From the sequence record PX418213.1: a DNA stretch of 64,000 nucleotides. One strand, written 5' to 3'. Position numbers and translations under genes: made by a program. The stretch comes from a phage. Positions within the stretch are counted from its first letter, which is position 1, and every line of letters begins with the position of its first letter. Under the pieces are notes generated by a model. That model had not been told where the DNA came from. It searched no databases and worked only from the letters and a program-made list of their open reading frames with translations. This document shows positions 3,297 to 63,008 of this stretch, one piece after another.

Positions 3297-3374
3297 TGGT
3301 GGCTCCCCGAGGATTCGAACCTACGTACCTTCCGGTTATGAGCCGGGTGCTCATACCATATGAGCTTGAGAACC
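3297..3374 (-). tRNA. tRNA-Met/Ile-like (anticodon CAT)
   Basis: D-arm gctc-atatggtat-gagc; anticodon arm ccgg-CTCATAA-ccgg resembling Met tRNAs; acceptor ggttctc/gggagcc with two G-U; T-stem has only 3 clean pairs. Confidence 0.5.
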
Positions 3375-6018: not shown

Positions 6019-6966
6019 TTACTTGTTACGCATATCCATGATCATTTGACCATCGTAGCCAGTACCTACCACAGTCTGAGGTACACCACCTTGATATTTC
6101 TGAGCACGAATCATCTCAACTTCCAGTTGTTTCCAACGAATCATCTCAGGAGTAATAGTACGTTGCAATGCGGCGTTAGCTTCAGCTTCTTTCTTAGCTG
6201 CGTACAGTTTAGCATCTGCGTCACGTTCATTAGCAATAGCTTGGTTGTTGCGAGCTTCACGATCTGCTTCTGCTTGTTTAACCTTCTGCTGTGCTTCTTG
6301 TTCAACACGAGCCAGTTCAGCTTTTGCAGCATTAACTTGCTCTTCACGAACTTTGGTATTCTGTACCTGCTCCATGATTACCGGTGGCAAAGTAATATCC
6401 TGAAGGAACACCTGCTTAACTGTGTAACCATATGGGCGTGCATACTCTTCAACTTCCTGTTGAATTGCAGTTTGCAATTGAGCCTGAATTTTAGCATCAA
6501 ACAAATCTTGTGCTTTAGGTACAGACTTACCAAACTCACGAATAGTAGACAGTAATTTTTCAGTTACATATTTGTCTAACGCTTGATCCTGAGTACCTGC
6601 ATTAATACGGTTAATCGGTGCCTTAGAACCATCAAACTGCAACATAACAGTCAGGTCAACAGTGGATTTAAACTTATCCTGACTAGGAACCTGAAGTTTA
6701 TCTAATTTTAGAGCAATATCTTTTGTACTAAAAGTATCGAAAGAAGCAAAAGGATTTACAATATGAAAGCCGGGTAATACTGGATTAGGGTCTACTTTAC
6801 CCAGGAAAGTCTGGGTTTTAACAGTACCGTCTTGAACAACAGTATAGGAGTTAAGGGCCAGAACTAAACCTACCAAACCAACTGCAGCACCAATACCCCA
6901 ACGTTTGATATTACGCATCAATTTTTGCTCATAAGTCAGTTCTTTAGTGTTTTTAGTAGCAAACAT
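6019..6966 (-). CDS. SPFH/band-7 (prohibitin/stomatin-like) membrane protein
   Basis: N-terminal hydrophobic segment (IGAAVGLVGLVLAL), SPFH-like core, Ala/Glu/Gln-rich coiled-coil C-terminus; terminator hairpin downstream on the minus strand. Confidence 0.65.
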   Translation of the reverse strand: MFATKNTKELTYEQKLMRNIKRWGIGAAVGLVGLVLALNSYTVVQDGTVKTQTFLGKVDPNPVLPGFHIVNPFASFDTFSTKDIALKLDKLQVPSQDKFKSTVDLTVMLQFDGSKAPINRINAGTQDQALDKYVTEKLLSTIREFGKSVPKAQDLFDAKIQAQLQTAIQQEVEEYARPYGYTVKQVFLQDITLPPVIMEQVQNTKVREEQVNAAKAELARVEQEAQQKVKQAEADREARNNQAIANERDADAKLYAAKKEAEANAALQRTITPEMIRWKQLEVEMIRAQKYQGGVPQTVVGTGYDGQMIMDMRNK

Positions 6967-8101: not shown

Positions 8102-8173
8102 TACCGACCGTAGGATTCGAACCTACATCTTCCACCAGTTACGACTTGATAATACCAATTATACTAGGACGGC
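8102..8173 (-). tRNA. tRNA-like element (degenerate; no clean anticodon arm, no CCA)
   Basis: T-arm gtagg-ttcgaat-cctac identical to that of the 830-912 tRNA; acceptor pairs 6 of 7; no convincing anticodon stem-loop found by hand. Confidence 0.3.
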
Positions 8174-8396
8174 AGTGTTACTACATAAGTGATTTCCACA
8201 CCCCACTATTTATAAATTAGAGAAGAGTTTAGGGGAGAGGTTTCAGACGCCTCATTTTACACGTTCTAGCCACTAACCGGGATTGCCGCCCCCTGTGTAC
8301 TAGTTTTACAACTAACCCACCGACTCTATTCAATGCGCTCCGCTTGGGATTCTGCACTCAGCGTAATCGGCTCGCTGTTCCCTAATTTATGAATAT

Positions 8397-8425
8397 ATTA
8401 TACAGAATTTATAAGCATTTAGCAA
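8397..8425 (-). promoter_or_regulatory. sigma70-like promoter (minus strand) firing into an ORF-free region
   Basis: attata/tagcaa with 17-bp spacer; downstream on the minus strand (8390 to about 7600) there is no ORF of 60 aa or more, only the tRNA-like element. Confidence 0.45.
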
Positions 8426-8433
8426 ATAAATTT

Positions 8434-8877
8434 TTAATTAAATTCTCCAGCAATCTGAGCAGCAGTACCACCATCATAACGCCCAGGAAATTCTTCCTTA
8501 ATCGCTTTCATCAGCATACCCTTTGTAATTCCAGGGTTTAGCTTAACTAATTCTGCAAAGTATTTACGAATCTCAGTATCAGATAACTGAGGAGGCAGAT
8601 ACTCCTGCAACCATTTATTTAGAATGTACTCATACTGAGCAGACTGCAAGCTATAACTATCAAGATCTTGACCATGAAGTTTAGCTTTCATCTGGTTAAT
8701 GCTTTTTAGTTGAGCTTTGAGATAAGACACAAATTGTTCAGAAGTGATGAAATCTTTATCAATACGCTGAAGATCCCCAATTATGGTCTGATAGCTTTTA
8801 GCGACTTCTTTATCAGAACCATTAAACTTAGAATCCTGCAAAGCTCTACGCAAAACATCTAAAATATTCTCTTCCAT
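8434..8877 (-). CDS. hypothetical protein, possible GatB/YqeY-like C-terminal domain
   Basis: C-terminal GMLMKAIKEEFPGRYDGGTAAQIAGEF resembles the YqeY/GatB motif; start overlaps the stop of the upstream small ORF (TAATG). Confidence 0.45.
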   Translation of the reverse strand: MEENILDVLRRALQDSKFNGSDKEVAKSYQTIIGDLQRIDKDFITSEQFVSYLKAQLKSINQMKAKLHGQDLDSYSLQSAQYEYILNKWLQEYLPPQLSDTEIRKYFAELVKLNPGITKGMLMKAIKEEFPGRYDGGTAAQIAGEFN

Positions 8878-9047
8878 TATTTCATTCCTAACGCTTGGTT
8901 AAAAGATTGTTCTGTCATAACTGCTGAGACTTTGGCGAAATCAAACTTTTTAGGGTTCGTAGTGATTTCAGCAACGTTAGAAGTTTTAACAGTTTTCGTA
9001 GTACGAATACCGCGAGTGTTAACACCAATAATTACAACTGATTTCAT
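8877..9047 (-). CDS. hypothetical small protein (about 56 aa, below ORF-track threshold)
   Basis: Hand translation MKSVVIIGVNTRGIRTTK...; GAGGAAG SD upstream; promoter motif at about 9079-9107 directly upstream. Confidence 0.4.
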   Translation of the reverse strand: MKSVVIIGVNTRGIRTTKTVKTSNVAEITTNPKKFDFAKVSAVMTEQSFNQALGMK

Positions 9048-9078
9048 ATTTCGCTTCCTCTCATTAATTTATGAAAGT

Positions 9079-9107
9079 ATTATACAGAAATTTAAGTAGT
9101 TGAGCAA
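9079..9107 (-). promoter_or_regulatory. sigma70-like promoter (minus strand)
   Basis: attata/gagcaa with 17-bp spacer; upstream of the 8877..9047 small ORF. Confidence 0.45.
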
Positions 9108-9115
9108 GTAAATTT

Positions 9116-9565
9116 TTAAGTTTTAGTGACAACAGGTTTATAGAATGTATGTCCCTTAATCTTAGTTGTTTTCTTAAATTTCTTTGTCCAGTAAGGTTTA
9201 TCTTTACCACTATGGAAGTATAGTGCTCCATGTGTAGGATCTTGTGGTAAATCAACGTAGTATATCACTCTAGCTAAATTCTTAGCGGTTTGCCAAGCCT
9301 CATCAGTTTTATCAACTTTTGGTCTCTTAGATACCCAAGAGAACTGGTTAGACTGATATACTACTTTACAGTAGGAATCTGGGAATTTACCGGAGTTTAC
9401 ACGGTTTTTAGTAACATGTGCAATCGCCGTCATTCCCTTTATGCCCTCACCACGACTTTCGAAATAGATATTTTTAGCAATGCAATCTATTTCTTTTGCA
9501 TCGTGCGATGCCTGACTACTAAAGCTGAAGGTAAGGGCAGCTACTAAAAGCAAAGCTGCCTTCAT
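9116..9565 (-). CDS. SleB/CwlJ-like cell-wall hydrolase with N-terminal signal peptide
   Basis: Signal-like N-terminus MKAALLLVAALTFSFSSQA; Hydrolase_2-type motifs (NIYFESRGEG, AIAHVTKNR, QFSW); start placed at the ATG preceded by AGGAG. Confidence 0.6.
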   Translation of the reverse strand: MKAALLLVAALTFSFSSQASHDAKEIDCIAKNIYFESRGEGIKGMTAIAHVTKNRVNSGKFPDSYCKVVYQSNQFSWVSKRPKVDKTDEAWQTAKNLARVIYYVDLPQDPTHGALYFHSGKDKPYWTKKFKKTTKIKGHTFYKPVVTKT

Positions 9566-9569
9566 TCTT

Positions 9570-9887
9570 TTACTCCTGCCAATCATATTCAACACGATTG
9601 GGATTTTCTTTATACCCTAAGTCAAGCAAATCATTACGCATATTTTGCTTAGCTACTGGGTTCGAGGTTACTAGTACCACTTTCTTTGGTCTCTGCCCAA
9701 ATTCTAAGAGTAAACGAAGAATTTGATAACCTTCCATACCATCTACAGCCAAGTCATTATCCATATAAACGAAATGGCCTGTGGTATCAGTTTTATTCAG
9801 AAACTCTACAGCGGCTTCTGGGGTTCGAATGATAATGTCCATTCCGTGAAGATTACGCACATCATCAATCAAAATATGAAAAGTCAT
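9570..9887 (-). CDS. hypothetical protein, weak CheY-like receiver resemblance
   Basis: ILIDDV, YMDNDLAVDGMEGYQIL and VVLVTSNP spaced like receiver-domain acidic pocket, Asp and Thr/Ser; by-eye only. Confidence 0.35.
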   Translation of the reverse strand: MTFHILIDDVRNLHGMDIIIRTPEAAVEFLNKTDTTGHFVYMDNDLAVDGMEGYQILRLLLEFGQRPKKVVLVTSNPVAKQNMRNDLLDLGYKENPNRVEYDWQE

Positions 9888-9917
9888 AATAGCCTCGTTT
9901 CATCAATTTAAAAATAT

Positions 9918-9946
9918 ATTATACATATAATTTAGTAGATTAGCAA
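9918..9946 (-). promoter_or_regulatory. sigma70-like promoter (minus strand)
   Basis: attata/tagcaa with 17-bp spacer; upstream of 9570..9887. Confidence 0.45.
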
Positions 9947-10329
9947 ATACATTTTTAAATTGTGAAACTAGTAAACCGATAAACAGCCTAGAGGCGCCAC
10001 AGGCCATATCTTATGAGCCATGTACCTTTGATCTAGGGTTTGAATCATCAACGAATACTTTGCATCTTTTAGCTTTAGAAGTTTAGAAGTTTGAGTTCTT
10101 TAAACTTTTCAGCTTTCATACTTAAATGTTGATCTTTGAAGTTGTGTCGGTAATATCAACGACGCTTTGTTCTTACGTGTCAGCTTAAAAGGCTGGTGTA
10201 ATAAACATAATCTCCAATAGATTATACTTTATAGTATGGTCAGCGGTCCTATTTAACCTCGTATTTCAACCGCTGCTGCGAGGTAAGATGCTTGGGCTTT
10301 CGTCTACCGATTTACTAGCTTTTAAATTA

Positions 10330-10968
10330 TTACTCTACTTCAATGAAGGTAGAGGCGTTAGACTCGGACAGAACAAAGTCAACATTTGTTGCAAAGTCCT
10401 GATATTCCTCGTCATGCTGCTTAATCAGCTTTTCCAGTTCCAGCGGATCAATCAAGAATGGAGTATTCTTGAGTTCCAGCAGGTTGAGCTGCATTTTAAC
10501 TTCATCTTCGGAAGTTTTCTTATCGCGGGTAGCCATGCTATCCTGCAAACGCTCATATTTAGCATCAAACTGTGCTTTCTGCGTATTAAACTTAACCGTA
10601 GCGGCATGGAACTGCTTACGCATATTAGCCAGCAGTTGGGCTTTAAGTTCCATAGAACGCTTAGCTTCAATTGCTTCCGCAACAGTCATCTTACGAGAGC
10701 CAATCTCAACGATTGTTTCCGCATTGCTTTTAATCAGAGCAGATTTGATACGATCACGCTGGGACATCATATCCAGGAGAGATTGGAAATCTGCCTTAAT
10801 ACGAGTAGACAAATCAGCTACTTCGATTGCAGCGCCAACTACAACCTGGTTTTTATCCTTACCTTCGCCAACAGCGATCAGAAGCTGCTGTTCAGTAGCT
10901 TTACGGATTTTAGCTTCCAGAGATTTGATAGTTGCCAGAGCGCGAGTTTTAGAGATACGAGTAGTCAT
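10330..10968 (-). CDS. hypothetical protein (212 aa)
   Basis: ORF track; the long + strand ORFs over this region are taken as antisense artefacts. Confidence 0.55.
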   Translation of the reverse strand: MTTRISKTRALATIKSLEAKIRKATEQQLLIAVGEGKDKNQVVVGAAIEVADLSTRIKADFQSLLDMMSQRDRIKSALIKSNAETIVEIGSRKMTVAEAIEAKRSMELKAQLLANMRKQFHAATVKFNTQKAQFDAKYERLQDSMATRDKKTSEDEVKMQLNLLELKNTPFLIDPLELEKLIKQHDEEYQDFATNVDFVLSESNASTFIEVE

Positions 10969-11274: not shown

Positions 11275-11976
11275 TCAAATTTTCATTTTTTCGATCATAG
11301 CTGCAACACAATAGCTCTCAACTAAGGCATCAAATGCAGGAGCATGCTTAACCGGATAGATCCCATAACGAATGGTGTCCATCTTTTCCATTTTAGCTAT
11401 TGCCCAGCTAATACCTTCGGTCTCTAGAGCTTTATAACTGTATCCAGCTTGCATCCAGAGATTACGAAGAGATCGAACATTGCCCAAATTCCAGAATTTC
11501 CACGGAACTACCTCTTCATTGGTTCCAGCATGGAACGTATTTGCAGAGTAGATAGTCATATCAAACTCTGGGCCATTGCCATAATACAAAGCATTTTCGC
11601 CTAGAGCCAACTCCATAATATTTTGAGCCATAGAGAAGGCAGCATAGTTTGAGCCTAATTTATTAGTGCAATGATGTTTACCATTTTGGAAGGCAATCAG
11701 TTTTGGATTACGTTCCTTCATAGCTTCCATAATGTGGATAGCAGACGGACTATTTTTAGCTTGATCCATCCAGAATGCTAGAGTAGATGCTGTAACTTTG
11801 GCACCAGAATTAAGTTGATCTTGCACATCCAAAGTAACAAATACTAGATCAGGGTCTTTATCAATTCCATGCATAGCCACAAAAGCGAAAGAAGGCATTG
11901 CGATATGAGTAGTACCACAATCTCCTGGAGTTCCTAGAGATTCAATATCTAGCATACCAAATGGTTTTACTTTCAT
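11275..11976 (-). CDS. DnaQ-like 3'-5' exonuclease (DEDDh type)
   Basis: Exo I-like MLDIESLGT (DxE) near the N-terminus and Exo III-like KHAPAFDAL (H-x4-D) near the C-terminus. Confidence 0.5.
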   Translation of the reverse strand: MKVKPFGMLDIESLGTPGDCGTTHIAMPSFAFVAMHGIDKDPDLVFVTLDVQDQLNSGAKVTASTLAFWMDQAKNSPSAIHIMEAMKERNPKLIAFQNGKHHCTNKLGSNYAAFSMAQNIMELALGENALYYGNGPEFDMTIYSANTFHAGTNEEVVPWKFWNLGNVRSLRNLWMQAGYSYKALETEGISWAIAKMEKMDTIRYGIYPVKHAPAFDALVESYCVAAMIEKMKI

Positions 11977-59324: not shown

Positions 59325-62300
59325 TTACATATTACCAAGAGATTTAAGGGTGGATCCATTCTCATTAAGAGCCAGTTCCACGGCATCTCTTAAAGCAGTG
59401 CTGTTATTCGATGCAAAATCTCTAAAGCTAGCAGCATCCATTGTGCTAATATTCAGAATGATTGGTCTTCCAGAGGTAGTCTTTGATCCATCGGAAAGCT
59501 GATCATTAGGTGTGGCTTTCATAGGAACCATAGGAGTTACTACTTCGGTACCGTGCTCACCCATTTGATAGCTAACTCCAGGGTACATCATACCACCCTC
59601 AGCACGCGGAACAAATGAGTTGGCATTACCAATACCCTTATCACCACGTAAGTAGGATAATTCTCCTGAACTAGCTTGCATAGATACATCAATGTTCTTC
59701 TGTCGCTCACCTAAAGTTAGGTACTGAGTAGTATCTGCTCCAGAATCTGCAATAGAAGACATACCAGATGCAGAAGATGCTTGAGCAAGAGCTAAGGCAC
59801 CTGCCAAACCTGCCGCCACCATCAAAGGAATAGAGAACGGGTATGGTACAGCTGTTGCCGCTTGCATTACTGCTACTGCTGTCTGGATAATAATTTGTTT
59901 CTTAGCTGCATCTTGCTGAATTTTTAACTTTTCAGCTTCTAACTTTTTCAGTTTAGCTTTAGATGCTTCAGATTTACCATCTCGTTTCTGTTCTGCTGCA
60001 ATAGCCTGGTCAATCGCACTAACCTGCTGACTAGCACTATACTGAATCACAGAAGATACAGCTTGCATACCTGCTGCGATCGTAGAAGTAGTATCTAAAG
60101 ACCCCATGGAGAACTGAATCATAGCATTGGTTAAATTACCCATGCTTTGAGCCACAGCAGTTGCTTCGGAGTTTAGCTCAGATAACTTAGAGATTGCCTG
60201 ATCATAAGAAGCCATTCTATTTCCCATATCAGCAAAATCTTTGTCTTTTCCAGATAGTCCAGTTGTAGGGGTATACACAGCACCTAAAGAAGACCCAACA
60301 GAAGCTTGCATTTGAGCATTGCGTTGTGCTGTTAAAGCTGACATCTGAGCCCTTGTCTTAGCTATTTCAGCATTCCAGCGCATTTGCTCGTTAGCATTAC
60401 CTTTGGTAAGTTCTTTCATCTGAGTATAAAAATCTAACTGCATTTCCATTTTTTGCATTTCCCCTGCCAGAGGGAACATGGAAGTTAGAGTATTTTCAAA
60501 GGCTTCTTGCCTTTTACTGGTCATTTCAGCTTGCTGGTCCTGACGGAATTTCCATATTTCACGCTCAATTTGGGCTTGAGAACGTCTAGACTGTTCGGCC
60601 TCTTTCTGTTTATCAGCTTGTTTTGTATACCATTCGTACTTCTCTTTTTCAATGGTCAATTCAAGATTTAACTGTGCTAGACGATACTGAGTATCTGTCA
60701 TAGTACGGTTATTTAAGAGAGCTATCTCACGATCTACACCCAGAATTTTATCAGTATAATCCTTAACCTTCTTCTGAGCTTCCATACCCTGATTAGTAAG
60801 TTTAAGTTTCTCCAGCTGAATTTTTTCAATTTCTTTCTCAACAGCTTTATTTCCCTGGTTTGTTTGAAGTACACGGCGTAGGGCAGCTTCTTGCTCTTCT
60901 AACTGTTGTAACTCTAAACGTCTACCTGCTTCTTGTGCTTTTTCTTTATCCTTAGTTTGGTTGTATACATCAGCTATCTTCTGTTGAACTGCTAACTGAT
61001 TTTTAGTTTCATTACCAGTTAGTTTAACATACTCAGATAAGGCCTGAGACGCAGTTTTCATTTCAGACAGAGTGTTATAGCCTAGGTTAAGATTTTTAAC
61101 ATACTCATCTGCACTTTTACCAGTACCTAGAGATAGAGATTCTATGTTTTTTATAGCATCTGCTAAAGTAGCACTAGTCTTAGCAGCAGTATCTGTATTC
61201 TGAGCAACGTTCTGTATATCATTAGCTAAGTCACTAGCAGTTTTCTTAGTCTGATTATATGCTTTTTGTTGTTCAGTTAGTCCTTTTAATACAGTAGAGT
61301 TAAAATCGTATACAGCATCAGGATCAGTAGTATCTCTCTGTAGATTAATCTGTTTCTGAAACTCTGGATTAGCCTTTGCAGCAGCAGCCCCAGCAGCTTG
61401 ATACGCTGATTTCCAAGCAGTAAGATTCTCTGTAGAATCATTAACTTCTTTATCCAAGCGTGCTACTTGTAGTCCCATAGCGGCAGTTTCTGCTACAAAT
61501 TGTTTATTAGCTTCCGAAGCACCTGCTGCTGCAAGACCAACAGGAATACCTTCACCAACTTGACGTATAGCTAGTTTTGTGTAGAAATCTGCTTGTTCCA
61601 TTCGTTTATCGAACTCAGATTTTAGCTTATTACGCTTATCAAGAGATTCCTTATACATATCTAGAGCTTTATTATAGCCTTCTTCAGAAGCGGCCAAACT
61701 TAAAGCAACAGCACCAACGTTGGTAGGATCTATCTGTCTATTAGTTTTTTCTTGAGCCCTAGCTGCTTCAGCAGATACAGAAGCCTGAGAAGTATAAAAT
61801 ACTGTGTTGATAGCATCAATTACTGGTCCTAAGTACTTAGCAGCAGCTTGTTGTACTGTTCTTAGTGCAGCATCTGCGTTAGCAGCAAACTGCTCCCACG
61901 GAGTAGCACGTAAAACTTCATCTAAGTAACCAAAACGTTTAGTAGATTCTGCTATAACAGCATTAGCATATGCTTGCTGTTTCTGGAAAGTGGTAAGACT
62001 ATTAATGTTATAAGTTATGCCTGTGTTTGCAGCATTTAACTGTTTAACGTAATCAGCATAAGCATCGTTAAGACGAATAGTAACACCAAGTTCATCCAGA
62101 AGTTCGATTTCTTGTTTAGATACACCCTTAATTACACGGTTAAGTGCATCAGTCATATCAACACCAAGAACAGCGGCAGCACGACGAGCTACTAAACCAA
62201 ATTTATTAAGTTGTTCAGCATCAAATCCATAAGCGGATGCTGAGGATGCTTGCCTCATAGCTTCTTCAAAAGAGATTGCATAGCCAGCTGCCTCTTGTAG

Positions 62301-63008
62301 TGATCTAGCAAGAGACTGAACAGGAGTACCTGTCTGAGTACCAACTATAACACCAAATTTTTCTAGACGATTTAACTGATCACCTAGTTTAAGCTGTTCG
62401 AATGCAGATTGCAAAACGAAGATGTTAGAAGCAATAGCAGCGTATAATAAAGGTAAACCACCACCAACTTTAGCCATTGCCGCAAAATCACGAGTTGCAC
62501 CACGTGCTGAGCCAGAAGTATTACCAATAGCTCTAGAAGCTCTACCAGCGGCACCAGCAGTATCATTAAAACCTCTAGCTGTACCGCCTAAGACTCTATT
62601 GGTGTCATACAATCTATCTTGAACTTTCTCTGTTGCAGCTGCAACATCATTACCCATTGCTTTAACAGATCTAGAAACTCCATCGAATCCAATCTCTAGT
62701 TTATCTGTTACTTCAATAAGTTGGATAGCAAGGTCATCTAACTTAGCCCCTATATCATTTATAGATTTAGTAACACTAAGCATACCTCGGCTTGCTTGCA
62801 TTTTAGTAAGACTTTTCGCTGCTCTATCCGCTGCCCTCTCAATGGAGTAAAGGGTTTTGGGCATTTTACCTAACTGTTCATTTGTCAGTTCGGAAGCAGC
62901 AGCAGCGTTTTCCAACGCATCAGATACGTTTTCAATAGACTTTGCAGTACGAGTTGCCCCCTTCTGCTTAACGTCTATTAGTAATTCTCGTATTAGCTTA
63001 TCAGTCAT
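59325..63008 (-). CDS. tail tape measure protein (pb2-like)
   Basis: 1227 aa; long predicted coiled-coil, Ala/Gln/Lys-rich; hydrophobic Gly/Ala-rich segment near the C-terminal third. Confidence 0.8.
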   Translation of the reverse strand: MTDKLIRELLIDVKQKGATRTAKSIENVSDALENAAAASELTNEQLGKMPKTLYSIERAADRAAKSLTKMQASRGMLSVTKSINDIGAKLDDLAIQLIEVTDKLEIGFDGVSRSVKAMGNDVAAATEKVQDRLYDTNRVLGGTARGFNDTAGAAGRASRAIGNTSGSARGATRDFAAMAKVGGGLPLLYAAIASNIFVLQSAFEQLKLGDQLNRLEKFGVIVGTQTGTPVQSLARSLQEAAGYAISFEEAMRQASSASAYGFDAEQLNKFGLVARRAAAVLGVDMTDALNRVIKGVSKQEIELLDELGVTIRLNDAYADYVKQLNAANTGITYNINSLTTFQKQQAYANAVIAESTKRFGYLDEVLRATPWEQFAANADAALRTVQQAAAKYLGPVIDAINTVFYTSQASVSAEAARAQEKTNRQIDPTNVGAVALSLAASEEGYNKALDMYKESLDKRNKLKSEFDKRMEQADFYTKLAIRQVGEGIPVGLAAAGASEANKQFVAETAAMGLQVARLDKEVNDSTENLTAWKSAYQAAGAAAAKANPEFQKQINLQRDTTDPDAVYDFNSTVLKGLTEQQKAYNQTKKTASDLANDIQNVAQNTDTAAKTSATLADAIKNIESLSLGTGKSADEYVKNLNLGYNTLSEMKTASQALSEYVKLTGNETKNQLAVQQKIADVYNQTKDKEKAQEAGRRLELQQLEEQEAALRRVLQTNQGNKAVEKEIEKIQLEKLKLTNQGMEAQKKVKDYTDKILGVDREIALLNNRTMTDTQYRLAQLNLELTIEKEKYEWYTKQADKQKEAEQSRRSQAQIEREIWKFRQDQQAEMTSKRQEAFENTLTSMFPLAGEMQKMEMQLDFYTQMKELTKGNANEQMRWNAEIAKTRAQMSALTAQRNAQMQASVGSSLGAVYTPTTGLSGKDKDFADMGNRMASYDQAISKLSELNSEATAVAQSMGNLTNAMIQFSMGSLDTTSTIAAGMQAVSSVIQYSASQQVSAIDQAIAAEQKRDGKSEASKAKLKKLEAEKLKIQQDAAKKQIIIQTAVAVMQAATAVPYPFSIPLMVAAGLAGALALAQASSASGMSSIADSGADTTQYLTLGERQKNIDVSMQASSGELSYLRGDKGIGNANSFVPRAEGGMMYPGVSYQMGEHGTEVVTPMVPMKATPNDQLSDGSKTTSGRPIILNISTMDAASFRDFASNNSTALRDAVELALNENGSTLKSLGNM

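Follow-up and report, generated by a model that had tools for sequence, protein, structure and literature searches.

A gene on the minus strand of a T5-like phage is predicted to encode a Sec-exported cell-wall hydrolase built on the catalytic domain of SleB. We consider it likely that this protein is an auxiliary, non-essential enzyme that weakens the wall beside the holin-dependent endolysin Lys, probably as a lytic transglycosylase, with its activity and export predicted from its sequence, a structural model and analogy with SleB. The gene lies in a 64,000-nt stretch of the phage record PX418213.1, hereafter the window, and all positions are numbered within that stretch. The gene itself, its domain and its position away from the holin are already known. 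The orthologue in phage T5 is T5.083, and the family is annotated in hundreds of T5-like genomes, under GenBank and RefSeq names that include 'cell wall hydrolase (SleB)', 'SleB putative cell wall hydrolase', 'spore cortex-lytic enzyme precursor' and 'endolysin'.

Sequence comparison identifies the window as DNA of a T5-like phage (Tequintavirus). The 4 kb around the hydrolase gene are 98.5% identical to several Tequintavirus records from Salmonella, Citrobacter, Klebsiella and Escherichia, and the first 25 kb of the window match other such phages at 97% identity over 95-96% of that stretch. Two features define the gene:

9116 to 9565, minus strand: complete coding sequence of the SleB-type hydrolase, predicted to be exported, orthologue of T5.083 (149 codons and a TAA stop)
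9573 to 9577, minus strand: ribosome-binding site AGGAG of the hydrolase gene, 7 nt 5' of the ATG, read from the sequence

The program-made list of open reading frames carries the gene further upstream, to a GTG at 9595 that would give a protein of 159 aa. We take the ATG at 9565 as the probable start because of the AGGAG site, which overlaps the final codons of the upstream gene (its TAA occupies 9572-9570), and because nearly all full-length homologues begin at or near the equivalent methionine. The GTG start was rejected: it overlaps the upstream open reading frame, lacks a ribosome-binding site and precedes the MK of the 149-aa form at which the homologues begin. Plus-strand shadow open reading frames (9290-9547 and others) were taken as frame artefacts of the minus-strand gene. 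From the ATG, the gene encodes a precursor of 16.9 kDa and a predicted mature form of 130 aa and 15.0 kDa, with a pI of 9.7.

The catalytic part of the protein is marked by a Pfam domain and, just ahead of it, by a putative catalytic residue:

9140 to 9451, minus strand: Hydrolase_2 (PF07486) catalytic domain, residues 39-142 by Pfam
9458 to 9460, minus strand: GAA codon of Glu36, the putative catalytic glutamate in the motif Y-F-E-S-R-G-E, by alignment to SleB structures

At 89.7 bits (cutoff 27; E 2.2e-25), the match to PF07486 is far beyond chance, and it spans all of the profile (positions 1-100 of 100). The protein also matches PHROG 938, 'endolysin' (E 5.5e-30), and a PDB search by sequence alone retrieves the catalytic domains of two SleB proteins, from B. 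cereus and B. anthracis (4F55 and 4FET, E 2.6e-8 and 1.1e-7). An AlphaFold2 model, built from an alignment of 27 diverse homologues, reached a mean pLDDT of 92.6 and a pTM of 0.84. When this model was searched against the PDB with Foldseek, the same two SleB catalytic domains were the only significant matches, each with a probability of 1.00, and the next PDB match had an E above 1. The model superimposes on 4F55 and 4FET with TM scores of 0.72-0.78 (normalised by target), an rmsd of 2.3-2.8 Å and 28-30% identity, and the fold match begins at about residue 22, before the start of the Pfam domain at residue 39.

The residues expected of a SleB active site are present. Glu36 aligns with the first glutamate of the motif Y-G-E-S-R-G-E seen in two SleB crystal structures, those from B. 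cereus and B. anthracis. In B. subtilis SleB the catalytic groove is formed by E203, R222, Y278 and H301 (PMC13556211), and the spacings E36-R55 (19) and Y116-H139 (23) in the phage protein equal those of E203-R222 and Y278-H301; here the residues were assigned by alignment to the B. cereus and B. anthracis structures and the B. subtilis numbering by spacing. E36, R55 and H139 are invariant in the alignment of 27 diverse homologues, and Y116 is present. On this evidence the active site looks intact. The protein nevertheless carries the SleB catalytic domain without being, by profile, a SleB orthologue: it scores 50.3 bits against a cutoff of 236.5 for the NCBIfam equivalog TIGR02869 (spore_SleB), and the match covers profile positions 79-201 only, with the N-terminal peptidoglycan-binding domain missing. 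At two positions, C28 and C66, the phage and metagenomic homologues invariably have cysteine where Bacillus SleB has Leu and Ser, and the pair is consistent with a disulfide formed in the periplasm. The likeness to SleB suggests that the enzyme is probably a lytic transglycosylase.

Ahead of this domain lies a leader with the character of a Sec signal peptide:

9509 to 9565, minus strand: predicted Sec/SPase-I signal peptide, residues 1-19 (MKAALLLVAALTFSFSSQA, followed by S), from a rule-based call and conservation in homologues

Judged by the rules for a tripartite signal peptide (a positive n-region, a hydrophobic core of 7-15 residues and small residues at -3 and -1), the leader has a lysine at position 2, an uncharged hydrophobic core of 13 residues (A3-F15; Kyte-Doolittle mean over 9 residues, 2.96) and then a polar SSQAS stretch. 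The predicted cleavage site, between A19 and S20 of S17-Q18-A19-S20, obeys the -3/-1 rule through the small residues S17 and A19. Neither a twin-arginine (RR) motif nor a lipobox is present in the leader. A hydrophobic leader precedes the domain in nearly every homologue that retains the domain start (75 of 78), and the leaders vary in sequence while their ends recur as A/S-x-A plus a polar residue (SHA/T, VQA/Q, SYA/S and VSA/S, with the slash at the predicted site of cleavage). Genuine signal peptides would be expected to behave in this way, diverging in sequence while keeping their character. These rules and homologues together predict that the hydrolase would be exported and cleaved after A19. 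The initial annotation had proposed a SleB/CwlJ-type (Hydrolase_2) domain and a signal-peptide-like N terminus, and both proposals are borne out, the first by profile, sequence and model matches and the second by the composition of the leader and its recurrence among homologues.

The gene is widely kept among relatives of T5. The hydrolase shares 97.3% identity with T5.083 over 149 of 149 aa (four substitutions), and its sequence is exactly that of the T5_ev219 'SleB putative cell wall hydrolase' (100% identity). In total, 443 phage records contain 80% or more of the protein, and full-length orthologues occur in Tequintavirus, Epseptimavirus, Sugarlandvirus and Pectobacterium phage My1. Pairwise dN/dS is 0.07 against T5 (dS 0.16) and 0.10 against the Epseptimavirus orthologue (dS 0.62), so that the gene is clearly under purifying selection. 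Apparent decay of the gene in Klebsiella T5-like phages, where tblastn matched residues 1-119 only, was considered and rejected: the open reading frame in vB_Kpn_B01, the Klebsiella copy counted here under Sugarlandvirus, is intact, with 153 aa and the GNHVFY motif retained, and the match is partial because of an indel. More distant homologues, at about 40-45% identity and all with hydrophobic leaders, occur in phage-like contigs from metagenomes, with lengths reaching 85-95 kb (L004 3305-3748, L005 6001-6444 and L006 6001-6480). Their neighbours encode Thy1, a metallophosphatase, a dGTP diphosphohydrolase, RNase H and UvdE, and no recognisable lysis or structural genes adjoin them.

The hydrolase gene follows a second minus-strand gene, and a candidate promoter precedes the pair:

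9570 to 9887, minus strand: cREC_REC gene, 105 aa, orthologue of T5.084 (Pfam PF20274, E 3.8e-15; 96% identity)
9918 to 9946, minus strand: sigma-70-like promoter TTGCTA-17 nt-TATAAT, matching 10 of 12 consensus positions, 5' of the cREC_REC and hydrolase genes

Only 4 nt separate the cREC_REC gene from the hydrolase start, and the overlap of the ribosome-binding site with the end of the cREC_REC gene implies that the two genes are almost certainly co-transcribed; they are probably also translationally coupled. The cREC_REC family, named for a 'cyclic-phosphate processing receiver' domain, is linked to RNA repair. A protein of this kind would not be expected in one operon with a wall enzyme predicted to be exported, and the two genes probably share a transcription unit but not a function. 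The promoter at 9946-9918 coincides with one annotated upstream of T5.084 in NC_005859; in the window it is a consensus match only, of a kind not found in the region above shuffled expectation. No terminator-like site was found in 8300-10400.

The order and strand of the T5 genes around T5.083 are kept, with cREC_REC at 96% identity to T5.084, a DUF7616 gene at 93% to T5.082 and a YqeY-like gene at 50% to T5.081. No membrane protein is encoded by the flanking genes (cREC_REC and DUF7616). A further site, TTGCTC-17 nt-TATAAT at 9079-9107 on the minus strand, lies just 3' of the hydrolase stop; it falls below the scan threshold and was read by eye, matches the position of the annotated T5 promoter 'P-D/E 33' and would serve as promoter for the DUF7616 and YqeY-like genes. 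The YqeY-like gene (8434-8877, minus strand), labelled 'tRNA amidotransferase', shares only 50% identity with its T5 counterpart, against 93-97% for the genes on its upstream side, and looks like a mosaic allele replacement within a conserved block.

Several other loci of this region deserve mention. A 315-aa SPFH/Band_7 protein (6019-6966, minus strand; Pfam E 3.2e-17), orthologue of the T5.080 'lipoprotein', is encoded near the hydrolase and is a further envelope-associated early gene. Two public annotations look unreliable: the 212-aa open reading frame at 10330-10968 (minus strand), which many records call 'tail fiber protein', is an early-region gene without any Pfam match, and the 233-aa open reading frame at 11275-11976 (minus strand), labelled 'metallopeptidase' or 'exonuclease', matches an Rv2179c-like 3'-5' exoribonuclease domain (E 3.6e-8). 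With an Rfam tRNA model, scores exceed the gathering threshold at 3300-3374 and 8102-8173, two minus-strand sites that ARAGORN does not call; the second of these sites falls in the counterpart of the T5 'RNAX' stable RNA.

The standard lysis genes of T5-like phages lie elsewhere. T5 encodes lys (T5.040, an M15-type L-alanyl-D-glutamate peptidase), a holin (T5.041) and spanins (T5.044/045) at 19.9-23.2 kb, with T5.083 some 20 kb away at 42.3 kb, and T5_ev219 has its endolysin and holin at 21.4-22.4 kb and its hydrolase at 42.3 kb. Searches of the 64,000-nt window by tblastn with T5 Lys, holin and both spanins returned nothing below E 0.3; the window starts only 9 kb to the lysis-gene side of the hydrolase. 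No holin or spanin gene adjoins the hydrolase gene, whose neighbours are the cREC_REC, DUF7616 and YqeY-like genes, and it lies outside a canonical holin-endolysin lysis cassette. Tail genes begin near 49 kb in the window. The initial annotation had placed the gene in the early region, far from the structural and lysis genes, and had asked whether a canonical endolysin-holin pair exists elsewhere in the genome. The first placement agrees with the synteny with T5.083 in the T5 early region and with the near-consensus sigma-70-like promoter, and the second with the distance to the tail genes and, in T5 and T5_ev219, with the 20-22 kb or so to the lysis genes; a canonical pair is present in these two close relatives, beyond the part of the genome covered by the window. 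The standard lysis genes of T5 also lie within the early region, and 'early region' is consequently no mark of difference between the hydrolase and the lysis genes.

Building on the features with direct support (domain, fold, groove residues, leader, orthology, genomic position and purifying selection), we infer a sequence of events that covers the timing, export, cleavage, disulfide, bond specificity and role of the hydrolase. Host RNA polymerase would transcribe the gene together with the upstream cREC_REC gene from the early promoter. The Sec machinery would export the protein, signal peptidase I would cut it after Ala19, and the mature enzyme would fold in the periplasm, probably with the C28-C66 disulfide in place. 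There, if it works as SleB does, it would be a lytic transglycosylase that attacks peptidoglycan at the glycan strands through Glu36. By reaching the wall without a holin, it would work alongside the M15 peptidase endolysin Lys and independently of it, and may help or speed lysis as an auxiliary. One consideration counts against an auxiliary lysin, in that an active wall enzyme exported early ought to carry a risk of premature lysis. Bacillus SleB requires muramic-delta-lactam, which is absent from E. coli walls (PMC13556211), and it is therefore an assumption that the phage enzyme acts on ordinary peptidoglycan, as is the kind of bond that it would cut. In a host without a muramic-delta-lactam cortex, the substrate specificity of the hydrolase must differ from that of SleB.

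A genome-wide CRISPRi-ART knockdown screen of T5, the one source of functional data that we found, bears on how far the phage depends on this gene. Knockdown of T5.083 was scored 'Not Fit', meaning that phage fitness in the laboratory was not reduced (PMC11879866, supplementary files 8 and 16), and in the same screen the holin was 'Fit' while lys, the spanins and several genes for replication and for the virion were 'Not Fit', as were D10, D13, ltf and nrdA (PMC11879866). The score indicates only weakly that T5.083 is dispensable, because many important-looking genes were also 'Not Fit'. The combination of a 'Fit' holin with 'Not Fit' lys and T5.083 fits redundancy between the two enzymes, and it fits equally well a low sensitivity of the screen for enzymes needed in small amounts. 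It is a speculative and rather doubtful extension of the model that the SleB-type enzyme, cutting glycan strands, and the M15 enzyme Lys, cutting peptide stems, form a redundant or synergistic pair in which T5.083 weakens the sacculus early, from its periplasmic face and without a holin. If so, such a pair would help to explain why knockdown of lys or T5.083 is 'Not Fit' while the holin is 'Fit'. Pairing of a SleB-type with an M15-type enzyme recurs in unrelated lineages of virulent coliphages (Demerecviridae and Vequintavirinae).

The enzyme could instead remodel the wall of the living cell early in infection and play little part in final lysis, which we regard as unlikely but as the most serious of the competing explanations. 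Possible effects of such remodelling include loosening or re-patterning of the sacculus, a change in cross-linking, release of anhydro-muropeptides and an envelope refractory to superinfection. The early-type promoter and the neighbouring cREC_REC, DUF7616 and YqeY-like genes, none of them lysis genes, would suit this role, as would the setting of the distant homologues (40-45% identity) in phage-like contigs of 85-95 kb amid genes for nucleotide metabolism (Thy1, metallophosphatase, RNase H and UvdE). In the Gram-negative Zymomonas, a cellular SleB homologue reportedly contributes to remodelling of the wall and to stress tolerance rather than to lysis, and the hydrolase gene, although knockdown of T5.083 has no laboratory phenotype, is under strong purifying selection. 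However, the lys and holin genes of T5 are early as well, so that early placement says little, and the authors of work on Vequintavirinae implicate a homologue in host lysis and report toxicity on its expression.

The risk of premature lysis would be avoided if the protein were a membrane-tethered endolysin of the SAR type, or a lipoprotein, held inactive at the inner membrane until depolarisation. SAR endolysins are common in Gram-negative phages, and predictors often call their N termini signal peptides. SAR domains tend to be longer, with many Gly and Ala residues. The leader of the hydrolase, by comparison, offers a core of only 13 uncharged residues and then the polar SSQAS stretch with a good -3/-1 site, and the A/S-x-A plus polar residue pattern recurs in homologues. 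For a lipoprotein, the lipobox is missing and the first cysteine is residue 28, inside the first helix of the catalytic domain. Tethering of either kind therefore appears highly improbable, and a cleaved, soluble periplasmic enzyme remains the better account of the leader.

That the protein is a virion-associated entry enzyme or a catalytically dead wall-binding protein is the least probable reading, and a very improbable one: phages often carry wall-cutting enzymes in the particle and a family name alone is no proof of activity, but a Sec leader and an early promoter are ill-suited to particle assembly in the cytoplasm, the wall function in T5 entry is attributed to the tape-measure protein pb2, whose open reading frame lies at 59325-63008 in the late region of the window, the few virion proteins identified in the T5-like phage AKFV33 (four bands analysed) do not include its SleB ORF81, and the conservation of all catalytic-groove residues argues against a dead enzyme.

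The hydrolase and its relatives have been described in print before. The 2012 genome paper on AKFV33 listed 'cell wall hydrolase SleB (ORF81)' beside a lysozyme and a holin among early-region products (PMC3326045). A 2024 paper on Salmonella phages noted two 'endolysin' open reading frames in T5-like genomes, an M15C peptidase by the holin and a SleB-domain protein far off, and its authors asked which of the two endolysins a T5-like phage mainly uses (PMC11180984). For T5.083, its close orthologues and the Vequintavirinae relatives, we found no enzymology, localisation or deletion phenotype in the literature, and what our searches returned on T5.083 and SleB-like lysins of phages with Gram-negative hosts consists of genome descriptions and one 'data not shown' remark on toxicity. 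The name 'T5.083' did not occur in the paper texts searched and is found in the CRISPRi-ART supplements; the HIDEN-SEQ and anthracycline studies contain nothing on the hydrolase gene.

Compared with T5.083 (YP_006911; 'endolysin' in RefSeq) and the Demerecviridae orthologues, the gene described here shows no difference of substance, with the same length of 149 aa and the same neighbours, although the downstream YqeY-like gene is a diverged allele relative to T5 (50% to T5.081). The next closest proteins come from Vequintavirinae and Stephanstirmvirinae, a lineage unrelated to the T5-like phage, and have the same Hydrolase_2 domain at 34-48% identity (CB7_83, CR3_087, the rV5 'SleB', the second 'endolysin' of PVP-SE1 and the PF07486 protein of iGC_PHA_EC001). 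As in the T5-like phages, Septuagintavirus pairs an M15C peptidase with a SleB-like hydrolase, and the Phapecoctavirus iGC_PHA_EC001 combines a GH24 lysozyme with its PF07486 protein. CB7_83, the SleB-like protein of Pectobacterium phage CB7, has a predicted signal peptide like the hydrolase here and was reported to be toxic when expressed in E. coli (authors' data not shown). In CB7, the coding sequence of a candidate class II holin runs into the SleB-like gene, whereas here the flanking genes are cREC_REC and DUF7616.

Bacillus SleB shares the catalytic fold and the Glu/Arg/Tyr/His groove with the phage enzyme. It differs in having an N-terminal peptidoglycan-binding domain and a YpeB partner, both absent here, and in lacking the two cysteines that are invariant in the phage hydrolase. 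In its predicted mode of export, the hydrolase resembles Sec-exported phage endolysins such as Lys44 of the Oenococcus phage fOg44, an enzyme with a cleavable signal peptide that leaves the cytoplasm without a holin. A cleavable leader and holin-free export, both predicted here, are common to the two proteins, while their catalytic families and host envelopes differ. Lys44 is the main endolysin of fOg44; T5-like phages, in contrast, have a separate holin-dependent endolysin.

The position of the gene away from the holin was remarked on in 2012 and again in 2024, and its description here has little value as a discovery. The mature protein, a basic domain of 15 kDa with predicted activity, may offer a small enzybiotic scaffold for Gram-negative walls. 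For the biology of these phages, the point is that large virulent enterobacterial phages keep a SleB-type enzyme, predicted to be exported by the Sec route, under purifying selection despite a working holin-endolysin-spanin system. The question this raises for T5-like and rV5-like phages is why, with a complete lysis system at hand, they also retain a SleB-type enzyme that would need no holin.
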